Below are positions 7,859-48,657 of a stretch of DNA of 64,000 nucleotides, piece after piece. Origin of the DNA: Dictyostelium discoideum (lineage: Eukaryota); assembly GCA_000004695.1 (NCBI GenBank), contig CM000151.3, forward strand, positions 6,528,001-6,592,000. The letters are read 5' to 3'. The position numbers and the translations under genes are program-made. The notes under the pieces are model-generated. The model was not told the DNA's origin. It ran no database searches and worked only from the letters and a program-made list of their open reading frames with translations. Each line of letters starts with the position of its first letter. Position 1 is the first letter of the stretch.

Positions 7859-8020
7859 GTTTTATGTGCAATAAATCAAATTCATAATTACCACCAATAA
7901 AAAATCCACAAAAAACTCACAATTTCACCACAATTACATATATAGATAAAATCAATTACATATATATATATATTTTTTTTTTTTTTTATTTTCAACAAAA
8001 ACAATACTCCCACATAAAGT

Positions 8021-8046
8021 AACCCCACCCCCACTCACACACACAC
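8021..8046. promoter_or_regulatory. C-rich/CA-rich element (AACCCCACCCCCACTCACACACACAC) about 190 bp upstream of the ATG at 8235; a candidate CAE/G-box-type developmental promoter element
   Basis: This is a very GC-skewed 26-mer in otherwise >85% AT intergenic DNA. Its reverse complement is GTGTGTGTGAGTGGGGGTGGGGTT, a G-box-like sequence. Confidence 0.3.
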
Positions 8047-8234: not shown

Positions 8235-9014
8235 ATGAATCAATCAAAACTACCAATAACAAAAATTTCAGAAACTGTTTTTAACCGCTTAAACCAATCA
8301 AATGATGTTATTAACAACACCAATAATAACACCACCAACAATAACAACAACAATAACAACAATAATAATAACACCAATAATAAAAATAATATAAATTATT
8401 TATTAAAACCAATTAATGAAATTAATGAAAATAAAATTTTAAATGATCCATCAAATGAAAATGGATTAAAACAATTATTTTACGAAATTAATAAATATTA
8501 TAATAATTTTGGGAGTAAATTAATATTTTTCTCATTAATTGGAAGTGAATCATTTAATTTGAATATTGAATCAAGTGATCAAGATTTCTTTGGAGTTTAT
8601 GAATGTGATATTGATCAAATTTTGTCATTTGAAAGTTACTATTACAATAGAATTCCAATTCAAGTTTTTCAAAATAACAACTCAAATAATTCATTACAAA
8701 AAGATAGAGATCGTGATAATATAATCAACCCAAATGAAACCATTATTCATTTAAAACCAGATATTACAATTCACGAAATTAGACATTTTTCAAAACTTTT
8801 ATTATTAGGAAATCCAAAATTAATTGAACCCTTATTCATTGAAAACTTTTGTTCATCAAGTCAATCATGGTTAGATTTAATTAAAAATAGAAAACTTAAT
8901 TTTTATACAATAACTTGTTTAACTCATTATTATTCAACTGTTAAAGTTTTATATTTTGATATTAAATCAATTTTTGAAAATGATAAAAAACAAAATGAAA
9001 AACAACAAAATGAA

Positions 9015-9059
<45 letters not shown>

Positions 9060-10520
9060 AATGAAAAATCATTAAATGATAGAAAAAGTATTTTTAAAAA
9101 ATCATATCATATAATTAGATTATTAATTGAAATGAATGATATTATTAATTATAAAGATATTAGAATTTATTTACCAAATCAATCAGAAGAAAGAAAATTA
9201 TTAATGAAAATTAGAGAAGGTGAAGAAATTGATATTCAATCTTGTTTTGAATTAGTGCAATCTAAATATTTAGAATTTGAATCAAAATTTAATGAATTAA
9301 AAAAAAATTCAACAAATGATTCTTTAATTAAATTAAATTCAGCTAGAGCATTACACGTTTTAAATGATTGGGTGGTTGATATTAGAAGAAATTCAATTGA
9401 AAATTCAAATAATTTAAATTCATTTAAAAAATATAAATTTGAAAATGAAAATCATCATGATGAATCAAATAATAGTTTTAAAATTGCAATGGATTTAATG
9501 AATAAAAATAATATTAAAGGTACTTTAATTTATTTTGGTCCTTCAGGTAGTCATTTACATGGTTTACAAGATGATGATCATAATGATGAAAATAGTAATG
9601 ATAATGAAAAGATTGATTGGATTGGTATTTATGCAGCGCCAACTGATGATATTGTTTCATTATTCCCACCTGCATTAAAACATGATTCAAGTGGTTTCAT
9701 AATGCAATCAAATGAACATATTGGTATAAATCTTAATCCAGCACCTGATAGACCAAATAATCAAAATAAAAAGGATTCATTCAGTAAAGGTATCATTTTA
9801 TATGAATTAAAATATGCATTGCAATTAATTGTAAATTGTTCCTATAGAGTTTTAGAATGTGTTTTCATGTCTTCAAATCAAGTACTCAATAATCATCCAT
9901 TCAAAAATAAATTTTATATTACAGATGCATGGAAAGATTTCATTAATCAAGTTTTAATCAATGATAATAATAATAATAAAACTTTTTCAAAATTATCAAA
10001 TTCAAATTTAATTCAACAATATTGGGGACTTGCAAAAGGAATTAGTATGAAGAATTCAACAATTTTTAAAATGGTTAAATCAAATTTGTTAAGAAAAAAA
10101 GATGATGCTATTACTATTGCTGAAGAAGATTTAGTTACTGATGATAGTATTTCAAAGAATTTATTCTTTTTAAATTATTTATTAATACAATGTAATACTA
10201 TATTAAATGGTATTGTTTTTAATGAAAATAATACAATTATCAATTCTCCAAATAATGAAATTTTATTAAAAGAAAAAGAAATACCATCTATATTCATTGA
10301 TAAACAATCAAAAGATTATCAATTTTTAATGTCATTAAAACATAACAAGCTAAACAAACTATCAATCATTCAATCATTAATAATTGATTCTGATTCAATT
10401 TTAGAAGAAATTAGAATTAAATTAGATACTTTAAAGAAAATACAAAGAATTGATCTTGTAGAATTTGAAACTATAAAATTATTAAATTCATTTTATAATA
10501 AAGTCAGAAAATCATTATAA
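8235..10520 (+). CDS. Protein (761 aa) with two tandem predicted-nucleotidyltransferase (Pol-beta fold, RlaP/PF10127-like) motifs and poly-Q/poly-N tracts
   Basis: It is a single ORF from ATG to TAA. The first motif, LIGSESFNLNIESSDQDFFGVYECDIDQI, fits the hG[GS]x9-13[DE]h[DE]h pattern with GVY..P. The second, LIYFGPSGSHLHGLQDDDHNDE..IDWIGIYAAPTDDIVSLFPP, fits the same pattern with a low-complexity insert. Confidence 0.6.
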
Positions 10521-43699: not shown

Positions 43700-44953
43700 A
43701 TGAATTCCTACGCAGACGCGGCTAAAATGGCCAACCCCTCCACCCATATGGACGAGGCATCAGAGAACTTCATTAAGGAATTCTCCACAAAAACAGCAGA
43801 GATAAAGGAGACCTACCCCAAATTATCAATAGGCCTCAAAGACATCTCCAAATACTGCGAGACCATATTGAACATGACTGCGCTCTCAACCTACGAGAAA
43901 AACAACGGATTCTACCCAATTACACTCGAATTCCCCAAAATGGATCTCATGGGGTTAGAAGAAATGAGAAAAACACTCTCAAACTACGATATCCCAATCG
44001 ACAAGATATACATAGGCAAAGGAACTAGAAAAATGATCCACCTGATGATTAAAAACGAACAATCTCTCCTAAATATCATTAGAGATAGAAGCAAATTGGG
44101 AACCTTCATCACCTCCAGTAGAGACTACCACGTCCTCACAGGAAGAGTAAGAATTCCAAGAGAAAAGGCAGGAATAGTGGACGCCCTCATCAAAACTGCC
44201 TTTGCAGAAGAAATGCCCTATGCAATATACCATACTATATACTCCACCGACCACCTCCTAGTATTCGGTCTAATAGAATGCGAAATAGGCGATCAAATGA
44301 AATCTGGCCAACACAATACAGAAATCGCCAACTTTACCATCAGAACGGCCACCAAAACCTACTCCTCACAAAAGAAAAATAAGAAAGTAGAGTCAAACAA
44401 CACGGAAGAACCATTAGAAGATGAGATGACAGATGATCCTCCCAACATCCAAAACAGGATAGCAATCAAATCCTCTCAACCAAAACCACAACAACAAACA
44501 AACAACCCAGCAAACAATAAGTCTGATAAACAATCAACCCAAGAGAAAAAAGCCCAATCAAAAAAGTCCTCTCAACCTCTTCCCCCCAAAAACCAAGCAG
44601 AATCTCAATCTGTCAAACCCACCACAACCACTACCACAACATCCAACGCCATCCAAAAAGACAATGCCAACAAAACGAGCACTAACATCCATTCATCCTC
44701 GGAAAACAGAGAGAAGACACCAAACATCCCTCCATCACATAAACGCAAGAACGAGGAAATCCACTCAAACAACGAGGTCACCCAACTCTCACCAACAATA
44801 AACAGAAGCAACCCTTACATCCCATCCACCCCTAAGACACCTGTCAAAAATGAAAGGAAAGGAATCATTGAGAGCTTCATAGAGAGTATCTACCCTTCAC
44901 CATCCAAACCGCAGCTATACGACTCCCAAGAGGAGATCGATATCATCTCATAA
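43700..44953 (+). CDS. Retrotransposon ORF1 protein (417 aa) with a basic Ser/Thr/Pro/Gln-rich C-terminal half
   Basis: This is the first ORF of the TRE3-type element and ends one nt into ORF2's ATG. Its N-terminal half is non-repetitive (MNSYADAAKMANPSTHMDEASENFIKEF..). Confidence 0.7.
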   Translation: MNSYADAAKMANPSTHMDEASENFIKEFSTKTAEIKETYPKLSIGLKDISKYCETILNMTALSTYEKNNGFYPITLEFPKMDLMGLEEMRKTLSNYDIPIDKIYIGKGTRKMIHLMIKNEQSLLNIIRDRSKLGTFITSSRDYHVLTGRVRIPREKAGIVDALIKTAFAEEMPYAIYHTIYSTDHLLVFGLIECEIGDQMKSGQHNTEIANFTIRTATKTYSSQKKNKKVESNNTEEPLEDEMTDDPPNIQNRIAIKSSQPKPQQQTNNPANNKSDKQSTQEKKAQSKKSSQPLPPKNQAESQSVKPTTTTTTTSNAIQKDNANKTSTNIHSSSENREKTPNIPPSHKRKNEEIHSNNEVTQLSPTINRSNPYIPSTPKTPVKNERKGIIESFIESIYPSPSKPQLYDSQEEIDIIS

Positions 44954-47900
44954 TGGTAGTAATCAAAATCAACCAATGGAATGTCAGAGGTTGGGGCACT
45001 GACACCTCCTTCAAAAACAAAACAGACTTTATCAAATCCCAATCCCCCCCAAACTCATTGGCAATAACCATAGTCAATGAACTCAACGCCGACGCAACAC
45101 AAGCACACCAGCTATTTCCTGGCTCCATCATTAGCGCAACCAACAGAGGCAACGGAATAGGAATACTAAACCACAACAACCAAAACATAAAACTCTCACC
45201 AATATTCATAATAGAAGGTAGACTAATAATATCAGACATTCTAATAAAAGATACCACAACGAGAATCTTGGCCATATACGCCCCGGCCCAACCTGATAAA
45301 AGAAAAACACTAGCTTCAACACTAAACAAACACTTCAACAACCAATACCACAACCTAACGTCTAACCCTAAAAAAAACATCGACATCATAGCAGGCGACT
45401 TCAATTGTTTAGACTTCAATGACAATCACACATCAAATGATGACCAAGGCAACTTGACAACACAATCCCCAGATGAGATGGCCACAGTAATCGAAGCCAT
45501 CAGAATTTCAAATAACCTAATGGATATGGACCAACTAAATAAAAGACCCACCTTCTCAAGAACGATACACAACACAAACAATAACCTCACAAGAATCTTG
45601 GAAAGGAGACTAGACAGAATATACCTTAACAATAGCATAATCAACTACAGCCAATTATACTTAAGGAACCTAATCCCCCCAAAAATTAATGACATACCTC
45701 TATCAGATCACAACTTCCTATCAACCACCTTCACTCTACCCAACATACAGATGAACAAGCGCAGATGGAGATTAAAAAAATCCTCAATCCTCTCAAGCAT
45801 AATGCTTAAGAAAATAGACTTCCTACTTAACGATTATTCAAGGGAGCTGTCATCCAACCATAACTCTATTTCCTTCTCTCAACTCAACAGCTTACTAAAC
45901 AAAATAAAACAACTATACACAGAATTTCAAAAACAAAATGACTACAACAATAAGGCAAACATCAAAAATCTAATCTCCCTACTAGAGACAGAATTTAAAG
46001 ACCAAGCCTTCGCAACCCTTTCAGCAATAAATGAATCTAAAAAAAGAGAAGAACAACTTAAACAAGAATTGAACAACTATTGCGAAGAAACCTCACTCAA
46101 GTACATCTCCGCGAGAATCAAGAAAAGACACAATGATTTCACCATCAACGCAGTAAAAGATGCACAAGGTAGAACAATCAACAAACAGGAATTGATCGAA
46201 GAAGAATACGTAAAATATTACTCAAATCTTTATGACTACAAAGAAGATGACCCACCATCTCATTATGAAATGTTGGAAAATTGGACAGTGACCAGGGACT
46301 CAACATGGGACAACCTTGAAAATGAATTCACATCACAAGAGATCCTAGAAGTAATAAAACAATTGAACCCACACAAATCTCCAGGCCCAGATGGAATTCC
46401 AAACTTATTCTACATAACACACAAAGAAAAACTAGCTCCAATACTGGCCTCAGCATTCAACGACACTCTAAGAAATCCTCATCTAATTAGCAAAAATTAC
46501 AAAGAAGGCCTCATTATCACGATACCTAAAAAGGGAGACCCCGAACTAATCAAAAACAGAAGACCAATTACACTGGCTAACTGTATATATAAAATCCACT
46601 CAAAACTAATAAACAATAGAATAATCCCAATACTAACGAAAGTGATCAACCACAATCAAAAAGGTTTCGTACCAGGCAGATTCATTATAGATAATATCAT
46701 ATCAATGAACGAATTAATCAACTATTGTAATGATAAAAGAATTAACGGAATAATTACACTATATGATTTCGAAAAAGCTTTTGACTCGATCTCACACGGT
46801 TCAATACTCAGATCACTACAACACATCAACATTCCAACCAATATAATCAACCTGATAATGAATCTACTCACCAAATCTGAAGCAAGAATTGAAATTAATG
46901 GTAGAACTACTATACCCTTTGAGATCAAAAGAGGAGTTAAACAAGGAGATCCACTATCACCCACCCTGTTCGTCCTTGTAATAGAGGCTTTAGCTAGAAA
47001 AATTTTACAAGATGACCGAATTACTGGCCTTCCTCTAAACAACAGCAACCACAGAGAGAAATTCCAAAGCTTTGCAGACGACTCGGCTTCAATGGTCCCA
47101 GACTCTCAACAACTTGAATTAGTACTACAACACTTCAATTCATTTTGCAAAGCCACTTCCTCAAAACTAAACATCGACAAATCTTCATCAATTCTTATAG
47201 GCAACCCAGACAATACCAACCAAAGAATTCCAATATCTACAAATCCAGAAAGATACTTGGGATACTTCTTCACAGGCAAAGGGATAACAAGAAAAATGCC
47301 AGAAATATTAAACACAATAAGATCATCCTTAGTACTATGGAAAACCACTGACTCAACAATCAAAACCAAAACCAACATCCTCAAAGCATTCGCACTCTCT
47401 AAATTAACCTACTATTCATATGTAGAGAACTTTAAGGAAGAGGAATTAAACCAAATCAATAAATTAGTCGAATGGTTTTTATCGGCACCAAACAACAAAA
47501 ATGCTAGTGGATTTCAAGTTATTAATTTAATGAGAGCCAAAAGAGCAAGATACCCACTAAAAGTAGGAGGCTGGAACATTTGGAATATAGAATTGAGACA
47601 ACTGGCGCAGAAACTTTGGATTATAAACCAGTTCATCCTAGCACTAGAAACCAAACAAACAAACTCATCTCATCACAAAAGCTGGGAATATCAGATCCAA
47701 AAAAACAAATTCACATCCAGATACCTAAAAGAAAACTTAGACGAATGGAACAAAATAAGAATAAAAAAAGCAATCTTCAACAATAATCTCACATCCATAA
47801 AAAACGAAAATGGACAACCACTTTCACTGGCAGAATGGTATACCACAATTCAAGACCAAAATCCAACCATCCCTAAAACGGAATTCCAATCATCTCTAAA

Positions 47901-48657
47901 CTTAAGAGGCTACAGCTATAATCAACTCTTCAACAATATACTGAAGATAAAAGACCCTAAAACAAGAGACACAATGTTTAGATTCCATGCCAGATGCCTT
48001 CCAATAAACTACCTTCACAACAAACAATGCCCACTCTGCAAAGAAGATATGAGCAAAGACCCATACGGTCACCTGTTCTTCTCATGCAAGAAAACAAAAC
48101 AATTCATAAAAATAAATAAACTCAAAAATTTCATCTTTATTACCACAGGCAAAGGTAAAAACTGGCACCATACAAGAATTAGGCAAAATAACAATTTCAT
48201 TAATAGAATAACTCCAAAATTATCACCGACAGCCAAAAAAGATCAAGAAGTGAATGCAGATTACGCCAACCACAGATTCCACAAAGAATACTTTGAATGG
48301 AACTATAAAGCAATAGACTATGATCTAACCAGATCATTCGCATATAGAAACCTAATGGCCCTTATCCTCCACAACATTTGGATTTGGATTTGCAATCAAA
48401 TATACAGTGAAGATCCTTTAACAGATGAATCACTATCATACAGCTCCCTTCTAAAGAAATGGCACAAATTGGCCACTCTAGAATACATCAAAAAAGCAAA
48501 AGATCTGAAAAACTTATCAGCAAAAGACCATAATAACTTCAAAGATCCTAAGATCCTTCTCACTTCAACGATCAAGCTAAGAAAAACAACAGCTAATTAC
48601 TATTGTATTCCAGAATCATCTCTCCCAAATATTATATCTTTTGATCAATTCATATGA
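44953..48657 (+). CDS. Retrotransposon ORF2 polyprotein (1234 aa): apurinic-endonuclease-like domain, reverse transcriptase and C-terminal zinc-knuckle-like region
   Basis: The N-terminus MVVIKINQWNVRGWG.. is an EEP/APE endonuclease start. The RT blocks are ..FYITHKEKLAPILASAFN.., GFVPGRFIIDNI, ITLYDFEKAFDSISHGSI and QSFADDSASMV (the F/YxDD box). The whole ORF is intact with no internal stops. Confidence 0.8.
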   Translation: MVVIKINQWNVRGWGTDTSFKNKTDFIKSQSPPNSLAITIVNELNADATQAHQLFPGSIISATNRGNGIGILNHNNQNIKLSPIFIIEGRLIISDILIKDTTTRILAIYAPAQPDKRKTLASTLNKHFNNQYHNLTSNPKKNIDIIAGDFNCLDFNDNHTSNDDQGNLTTQSPDEMATVIEAIRISNNLMDMDQLNKRPTFSRTIHNTNNNLTRILERRLDRIYLNNSIINYSQLYLRNLIPPKINDIPLSDHNFLSTTFTLPNIQMNKRRWRLKKSSILSSIMLKKIDFLLNDYSRELSSNHNSISFSQLNSLLNKIKQLYTEFQKQNDYNNKANIKNLISLLETEFKDQAFATLSAINESKKREEQLKQELNNYCEETSLKYISARIKKRHNDFTINAVKDAQGRTINKQELIEEEYVKYYSNLYDYKEDDPPSHYEMLENWTVTRDSTWDNLENEFTSQEILEVIKQLNPHKSPGPDGIPNLFYITHKEKLAPILASAFNDTLRNPHLISKNYKEGLIITIPKKGDPELIKNRRPITLANCIYKIHSKLINNRIIPILTKVINHNQKGFVPGRFIIDNIISMNELINYCNDKRINGIITLYDFEKAFDSISHGSILRSLQHINIPTNIINLIMNLLTKSEARIEINGRTTIPFEIKRGVKQGDPLSPTLFVLVIEALARKILQDDRITGLPLNNSNHREKFQSFADDSASMVPDSQQLELVLQHFNSFCKATSSKLNIDKSSSILIGNPDNTNQRIPISTNPERYLGYFFTGKGITRKMPEILNTIRSSLVLWKTTDSTIKTKTNILKAFALSKLTYYSYVENFKEEELNQINKLVEWFLSAPNNKNASGFQVINLMRAKRARYPLKVGGWNIWNIELRQLAQKLWIINQFILALETKQTNSSHHKSWEYQIQKNKFTSRYLKENLDEWNKIRIKKAIFNNNLTSIKNENGQPLSLAEWYTTIQDQNPTIPKTEFQSSLNLRGYSYNQLFNNILKIKDPKTRDTMFRFHARCLPINYLHNKQCPLCKEDMSKDPYGHLFFSCKKTKQFIKINKLKNFIFITTGKGKNWHHTRIRQNNNFINRITPKLSPTAKKDQEVNADYANHRFHKEYFEWNYKAIDYDLTRSFAYRNLMALILHNIWIWICNQIYSEDPLTDESLSYSSLLKKWHKLATLEYIKKAKDLKNLSAKDHNNFKDPKILLTSTIKLRKTTANYYCIPESSLPNIISFDQFI

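Follow-up and report, generated by a model that had tools for sequence, protein, structure and literature searches.

Why would an amoeba carry, joined end to end in a single chain, two copies of a nucleotidyltransferase (NTase) belonging mostly to bacteria and their viruses, and why would it conserve the second copy when that copy seems to have lost its active site? The question is raised by a gene of Dictyostelium discoideum at positions 8235-10520 of a 64,000-nucleotide stretch of contig CM000151.3 (GenBank assembly GCA_000004695.1, positions 6,528,001 to 6,592,000 of the forward strand), the whole of which is called the window below. A sequence-only reading had described its product as two tandem NTase motifs of the RlaP type. 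The name RlaP is said to have been given by Burroughs and Aravind in 2016. RlaP (PF10127) is a large family, overwhelmingly bacterial with many viral and few eukaryotic members, whose activity was first measured in a preprint of December 2025 (PMC12776372); the sequence-only reading called it mostly bacterial and linked to conflict systems, and the literature agrees (PMC12776372, PMC7824862). The enzymes PfRlaP of P. fluorescens and PaRlaP of P. aeruginosa extend the 3'-OH of RNA by one or two nucleoside monophosphates (NMPs), with a preference for the broken end in a mimic of cleaved tRNA (PMC12776372), and their proposed role is to put back, ahead of ligation, the nucleotides that ribotoxins have removed (PMC12776372; PMC7824862). 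Catalysis by PfRlaP requires three strictly conserved aspartates, and in its crystal structure the cleft for the substrate is formed between the NTase domain and the helical one (PMC12776372).

Two RlaP modules in one chain

The open reading frame (ORF) runs from ATG to stop without interruption and encodes 761 residues, exactly as first described, and the two peptides in which a repeated signature had been recognised are both present, SLIGSESFNLNIESSDQDFFGVYE at residues 100-123 and FGPSGSHLHGLQDDD...IDWIGIYAAP at residues 435-469. The whole protein matches the Pfam RlaP model in two stretches with 51.1 bits (E 1.9e-13; gathering score 23), and PF10127 is the sole Pfam family above threshold; a scan against NCBIfam gave no match. 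Taken alone, the N-terminal half scores 45.5 bits against the cut-off of 23 and so belongs to the family, and it is also matched by the nucleotidyltransferase family PHROG 388 (E 2e-21). The C-terminal half alone scores 14.9 bits (E 0.022), which leaves it under the cut-off and outside the family by that measure. Compared directly by BLASTP the halves show no significant likeness (E 0.62, 20% identity); alignment of the two half-profiles built from dictyostelid orthologues with hhalign gives a probability of 99.5% and E 3.5e-22. The match covers 258 columns, beginning at the helix that precedes the first strand and running on to the final helix, and thereby spans both the NTase and the helical parts. 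A match of this strength and length is not a matter of chance motifs, and therefore the RlaP module has been duplicated in its entirety, helical domain included, which bears out the duplicated Pol-beta-fold, RlaP-like NTase of the sequence-only reading.

A first AlphaFold2 model, made with 6 sequences, was unusable (predicted local distance difference test, pLDDT, 54.6) and was replaced by a run with 28 tandem sequences over residues 66-761, which reached a pLDDT of 82.5 and a predicted template modelling score (pTM) of 0.84, low confidence being limited to species-specific inserts. In this model the elements follow the same order in both modules: helix, strand, GS loop, strand, further strands and a long helical bundle. 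So high a pTM for a 696-residue chain of two modules suggests that they hold a defined mutual arrangement, and a confident single-chain model is compatible with the compact pseudo-dimer that had been envisaged from the sequence.

An intact first module and its probable substrate

Conservation was measured residue by residue in an alignment of 24 tandem proteins, split into halves (N and C modules), with 44 single-module RlaPs; the coordinates of all features are collected in Table 1. Module 1 presents the signature as it had been read, G103-S104, nine residues and then S114-D115-Q-D117-FFGVY, and it carries the complete Pol-beta catalytic set of hG[GS], [DE]x[DE] and third carboxylate, the last of these, D176, being found in 98% of single-module RlaPs. 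Across single-module RlaPs and N modules, E181 is conserved at 92-95%, E198 at 80-100% and the helical-domain residues H292, R295 and R320 at 82-100%, and N108, S114, G192, P194, K288, Y291 and R327 are likewise conserved. All positions conserved in single-module RlaPs are retained in module 1, and N modules keep G, S, DxD, D, K288, H292, R295, R320 and R327 at 92-100%. By analogy, the helical-domain residues from K288 to R327 presumably line the cleft for nucleoside triphosphate (NTP) and RNA, and module 1 is presumably a complete enzyme, active as far as its residues predict.

Like the known RlaPs (PfRlaP, PaRlaP and the T4 protein NrdC.11), module 1 combines the GS, three conserved aspartates and, in the model, an NTase domain with a helical one, and its terminal helix is predicted to end in the same conserved W...R motif. 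Because it keeps every family-conserved residue, extension of RNA 3' ends is the best-supported inference for its activity. Module 1 would then lengthen RNA at its 3'-OH by one or a few NMPs without a template, for example at damaged or trimmed tRNA ends. RNA is named here by analogy with the Pseudomonas enzymes, and we lean slightly towards it as the substrate.

The strongest alternative is that module 1 is active on something else and nucleotidylylates a small molecule or a protein, as do the kanamycin and lincosamide NTases and DrrA. Neither the protein nor either half-profile found a relative by sequence among the solved structures of the PDB, PfRlaP being evidently absent from the copy searched, and the best matches of the model among solved structures are the kanamycin NTase ANT(4'), the lincosamide NTase LinB and 3c18-type NTases, in which, as in the tandem RlaP, a helical, HEPN-like bundle comes after the Pol-beta NTase domain. 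These matches are weak, however, and would reflect the shared fold; the sequence family, the only one above threshold, is RlaP and not that of the aminoglycoside NTases, and in the single biochemical study RNA alone was labelled among the macromolecules of E. coli (PMC12776372). We consider a non-RNA substrate unlikely.

A conserved pseudo-enzyme

The sequence-only reading had counted a second copy of the signature, and part of it stands: GS and D461-WIGIY are present, and the acidic pair [DE]x[DE] is lacking, with K459 at the place of the first aspartate. Across C modules K, Q, I, H, N or E stands at the position equivalent to D115, and the third carboxylate has given way to glycine within a motif specific to module 2, [KR]D[TS][FY]xxG, whose K513, D514 and G519 do not vary among the aligned dictyostelids. 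The equivalents of H292, R295 and R320 are present in 38-71% of C modules, and all three are replaced in the window protein. Inactivity of this site had been suspected on the ground that low complexity interrupts its loop; the inactivity is indeed probable, and the insert (residues 446-458) proves to be specific to D. discoideum and near relatives, the loop being short in other species, so that the universal lesion is not the insert but the loss of the first and third carboxylates.

Other parts of module 2 have been kept with great constancy. E524, the equivalent of E181, occurs in 100% of C modules and E541, the equivalent of E198, in 92%; G438, D461, E524, E541 and R758 are kept at 92% or more, and in the 28-sequence alignment G438, D461, G519, E524, E541, G598 and R758 are invariant or nearly so. 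Dictyostelid second modules share the motifs DWxGxYxxPT...SLxPP, KDxFxKG, RxxEC and WG. Because the first and third carboxylates and the cleft residues have been replaced, module 2 is to be regarded, on its residues, as a pseudo-enzyme by the usual criteria, homologous to module 1 and strongly conserved rather than decaying. In this architecture, with its dead second site, we have high confidence.

Such constancy could also be read as the mark of a living site, either rebuilt around D461, D514 and E524 or turned into an allosteric or sensor site for nucleotides. GS, D461, E524 and E541 persist in at least 83% of C modules, the invariant D514 sits just before the strand that normally bears the third aspartate, and a related metagenomic tandem, P0052, is intact in both modules. 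Yet in practically every C module other residues stand at two of the three canonical carboxylate positions, aromatics take the places of H292, R295 and R320 in the window protein, and the Pfam score is under threshold, so that a working second site is quite improbable.

Distribution among amoebae

An exhaustive HMMER search of 1.84 billion representative proteins, with a profile trimmed of the asparagine-rich leader, found 2634 relatives at E <1e-3, 39 of them at <1e-30. A word-indexed search with the full protein returned 5 relatives, probably because Asn/Gln-rich words swamped the candidates; a 12-sequence alignment returned 3, and a search with the closest single-module protein only unnamed sequences. 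In the 28-sequence alignment the window protein is collinear from end to end with 27 other tandem proteins, all amoebozoan or eukaryote-like. Full-length tandems occur in Heterostelium, Polysphondylium, Tieghemostelium, Cavenderia, Acytostelium, D. firmibasis and D. purpureum, in short in every dictyostelid found, and beyond the Dictyostelia in Balamuthia mandrillaris and Stenamoeba stenopodia (both Discosea) and in Pelomyxa schiedti (Archamoebae). Further tandem relatives lie on eukaryote-like contigs, beside V-SNARE and RADX genes or a gene for a 1935-residue RWD protein. Tieghemostelium, Cavenderia and Acytostelium each have two paralogues, and the second paralogue group (proteins P0010, P0005, P0007, P0011-P0014 and P0018) shows the same pattern of active and dead modules; the D. 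discoideum copy of this group lies outside the window. A second tandem copy within the window was considered and rejected, as tblastn with P0010 matches only the ORF at 8235-10520. On a TARA ocean metagenome scaffold, P0052 (L009 290-1954) is a 554-residue tandem RlaP with GS, DxD and third aspartate in both modules.

A neighbour-joining tree separates the degenerate C modules from the N modules and single-module RlaPs with a bootstrap of 80/100, places the C module of the window protein on the C-module side and recovers both dictyostelid paralogue groups within each side. The window protein shows the pattern that defines the amoebozoan tandem family, an active N module and a C module with glycine at the position of the third aspartate and the first aspartate lost. 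The simplest history would be one event of duplication and decay in an early amoebozoan, by which module 2 arose as a copy of the whole module, and a later doubling of the gene in the ancestor of the dictyostelids. Peptide patterns for the dead module, run against 185,579 bacterial and archaeal genomes and IMG/VR, and those for the active module, run against IMG/VR, matched no confirmed relative; the patterns were narrow, and the negative is weak.

Tandem modules in viruses

Against phage genomes, tblastn with the window protein gave no match; it was a search by structure that led to gp218 of Bacillus phage G (AEO93477.1, labelled 'NrdC', 519 residues), the top match among predicted viral structures. 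Foldseek aligns it with our model over 692 columns and both modules (E 3.7e-14; template modelling score, TM, 0.60 on the target). Like the window protein, gp218 has an intact RlaP module followed by a degenerate copy: its N-terminal part scores 76 bits against RlaP in Pfam, and its C-terminal part, which has no Pfam match, lacks GS and both aspartates of DxD. In contrast to the amoebozoan case, this second module is more eroded, and it is of separate origin: BLASTP relates it to the N-terminal part of its own protein (E 1e-18), and hhalign finds no specific likeness to the amoebozoan dead module (probability 0.3%), so that the duplication is an independent one. A tandem of active and dead RlaP modules has therefore arisen at least twice, in amoebozoans and in phage G, and this recurrence suggests that the pairing of two RlaP modules is functionally favoured. 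An RNA ligase (gp240) is encoded about 18 kb downstream of gp218 in phage G. In BFVD, proteins of Terrestrivirus (A0A3G4ZQ79, 515 residues) and Yasminevirus (A0A5K0U9N0, 596 residues) are aligned with the model by Foldseek over more than 700 columns, at E about 2e-5 and low TM; both are labelled 'nucleotidyltransferases' and are possible additional tandem RlaPs from amoebal viruses.

With so bacterial and viral a family, and with giant-virus and phage proteins of tandem length matching the model, it might be supposed that Dictyostelium acquired its NTase recently by horizontal transfer and fused it within its own lineage, as the sequence-only reading had invited one to ask. The tandem of active and dead modules is shared, however, by Dictyostelia, Archamoebae (Pelomyxa) and Discosea (Balamuthia, Stenamoeba), which disfavours a recent bacterial acquisition; the C modules stand apart from all others in the tree, three dictyostelid species hold two paralogues, and two of the best-scoring single-module relatives are themselves eukaryotic, one from Pharyngomonas (Heterolobosea) and one on a contig with ARID, enolase and UbiA genes. 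The narrow pattern scans found no relative of the C module in bacteria, archaea or IMG/VR, and the tandem of phage G is a duplication of its own. Recent acquisition is in our judgement very improbable. Least probable of all is a second-messenger enzyme like cGAS, OAS or the CD-NTases with its dead domain as ligand sensor, a likeness drawn in the sequence-only reading for which there speak only the general analogy of OAS2 and OAS3, tandem NTases with inactive copies, and the frequent discussion of RlaPs beside conflict systems (PMC7824862), and against which stand the lack of any Mab-21, OAS or SMODS match in Pfam down to E 10, of any PADLOC match and of cGAS or OAS among the fold matches listed, so that neither the sequence models nor the fold matches listed place the protein in those families.

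A proposed mechanism

We think it probable, arguing by analogy, that the protein joins an active RlaP module working on RNA 3' ends to a dead module that serves as its partner. Having lost two of the three metal-binding carboxylates and most of the cleft residues, module 2 would be incapable of canonical nucleotidyl transfer; as the model suggests, it would pack with module 1 as a covalently linked pseudo-dimer, and could act as a structural partner, as a surface for RNA recognition, or as both. Several points weigh against this. The neighbourhood of RNA ligase or repair genes from which the family takes its name is not found here, where the neighbours encode a mitochondrial carrier and a zinc-type alcohol dehydrogenase, and operon linkage to RtcB and RNA ligases, on which the repair role is based, is an argument inapplicable in a eukaryote. 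The characterised RlaPs belong to a bacterial subcluster, and identity to relatives at the level of the Pfam family is low. The structural neighbours of the model act on small molecules or proteins, and module 2, which keeps GS, one aspartate and two glutamates, may retain some binding of nucleotide or metal.

Known RlaPs are single-module proteins of about 230-290 residues encoded beside RNA ligase genes in bacteria and phages; the window protein differs from them in being eukaryotic, 761 residues long, fused to a degenerate copy, loaded with low-complexity inserts and without a ligase neighbour. A parallel in principle is offered by TUT4/TUT7 and OAS2/OAS3, tandem NTases with one catalytic copy and a degenerate one used to bind RNA or a partner. 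The likeness is one of analogy only, for they belong to unrelated NTase subfamilies whose modules stand in another order (TUT4/7 have the dead copy at the N-terminus), and neither Pfam nor the fold matches listed connect them with the window protein.

A wider reading, possible and rather doubtful, is that RlaPs work as asymmetric dimers, that Amoebozoa have fixed the dimer in one chain with the dead module as a dedicated subunit for RNA recognition or regulation, and that the result is a specialised RNA-end repair for amoebae that eat bacteria. Such repair might be directed, for example, against ribotoxins from prey or endosymbionts, and jumbo phage G, perhaps along with giant viruses of amoebae, would have arrived at the same asymmetric solution on its own. 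If true, this would give the RlaP family its first eukaryotic role and add a new pseudo-enzyme partnership.

The family and its fold were already known, and what appears to be undescribed is the tandem of active and pseudo-modules across the Amoebozoa and its convergence with a phage. In our literature search no paper went further on eukaryotic RlaPs than the remark that a few exist, and the papers found on PF10127 were without amoebae; in public databases the tandem proteins are labelled hypothetical or 'nucleotidyltransferase', with a PF10127 tag. The tandem is a clean example of pseudo-enzyme evolution through internal duplication and a concrete handle on how RlaP enzymes recognise their substrates, in a species, D. 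discoideum, that is genetically tractable and in which the cellular role of an RlaP can be asked. It bears on the fields of RNA repair, NTases and pseudo-enzymes; it overturns nothing known and is not very surprising.

The gene and its surroundings

Table 1. Features of the tandem RlaP gene and its neighbourhood, with the phage G homologue. Coordinates refer to the window unless another sequence is named.
Feature	Position	Strand	Remarks
C-rich box GTAACCCCACCCCCACTCACACACAC	8019..8045	+	About 190-215 bp upstream of the ATG; possible promoter element
Tandem RlaP / pseudo-RlaP protein	8235..10520	+	Complete single-exon gene; ORF list and orthologues
Asn-rich low-complexity leader, residues 1-65	8235..8429	+	Not conserved
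Module 1, residues 66-393, intact RlaP-type NTase domain and helical domain	8430..9413	+	PF10127, PHROG 388
G103-S104, hG[GS] motif of module 1	8541..8546	+	Invariant in N modules; 93-95% of single-module RlaPs
S114-D115-Q-D117, putative metal-binding DxD of module 1	8574..8585	+	Invariant in N modules; 93% of single-module RlaPs
Asn/Asp-rich insert, residues 142-164, module 1 NTase domain	8658..8726	+	Species-specific
D176-ITIH-E181, third catalytic carboxylate and conserved Glu	8760..8777	+	D176 invariant in N modules
Poly-Gln / NEKQ low-complexity insert, residues 249-279, module 1 helical domain	8979..9071	+	Strain-variable length
Helical-domain residues K288, Y291, H292, R295, R320, R327	9096..9215	+	At least 82% of single-module RlaPs, at least 92% of N modules
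Module 2, residues 396-761, degenerate full-length copy of module 1, putative pseudo-NTase	9420..10517	+	hhalign E 3.5e-22
G438-S439, retained GS of module 2	9546..9551	+	G in 96%, S in 83% of C modules
D/N/E-rich insert of 13 residues (446-458), module 2 loop	9570..9608	+	Low complexity
K459-I-D461-WIGIY, first Asp replaced, second kept	9609..9632	+	D461 in 92% of C modules
KKDSFSKG519-IILY-E524, Gly in place of the third carboxylate	9768..9806	+	G in 92% of C modules at the D176 position of N modules
Degenerate cleft residues F644, F645, Y648, Y695 for Y291, H292, R295, R320	10155..10340	+	Residue alignment
Zinc-type alcohol dehydrogenase / quinone-oxidoreductase-like, 339 residues	11160-12179	+	ADH_N and ADH_zinc_N in orthologous locus L001
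Phage G gp218	L003 10216-11775; JN638751 150215-151774		Intact RlaP module and degenerate copy

The window is very AT-rich, with a G+C content mostly of 13-25%. The top match of the gene product is a D. discoideum protein, and the copy from another assembly of the species (P0001, 747 residues), called as one gene, shares 94-97% identity with it, most of the difference lying in how long the Asn/Gln repeats are. The exact window protein is absent from a collection of 15 billion proteins because its insert at 8979-9071, 14 residues longer than in P0001, and its asparagine runs differ; the insert is a strain-level polymorphism of repeat length within a folded domain. The idea that two genes had been joined by artefact was rejected, a single ORF being kept in all tandem orthologues. 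The gene order, mitochondrial carrier, tandem RlaP and zinc-type alcohol dehydrogenase, is the same in the other strain, and no functional link between the dehydrogenase neighbour and the NTase gene is evident.

The asparagine-rich leader is found in three of six aligned homologues (the window protein, P0001 and P0002 of D. purpureum) and has a pLDDT of about 25 in the first, 6-sequence model. The insert at residues 142-164 is confined to the same three proteins, P0003 having a shorter asparagine-rich one and P0004 and P0005 a gap, and its pLDDT is <50 in the 28-sequence model (model residues 77-99). The Heterostelium orthologue, P0006, is free of low-complexity sequence.

Upstream of the gene, the C-rich element singled out in the sequence-only reading is real and unusual for this DNA, being one of 16 C- or G-rich 16-mers in 64 kb and surrounded by DNA of 14-20% G+C. 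It is retained in another D. discoideum strain, and the D. purpureum orthologue is preceded by a similar box, ACACCCCATCCCCCC; the further positions listed are L001 2752-2800 and L002 about 1386-1400. The element may belong to the promoter of the tandem RlaP gene, and looks like the C/G-rich boxes of Dictyostelium developmental promoters to which G-box factor binds.

Elsewhere in the window, positions 43700-48657 stand out by a G+C content of 35-40% and a strong strand skew, and hold two consecutive forward ORFs of 417 and 1234 residues, the second with a reverse-transcriptase-like ..SFADD.. motif; from a reading of the translation only, this looks like a non-long-terminal-repeat retrotransposon of the Dictyostelium TRE type.

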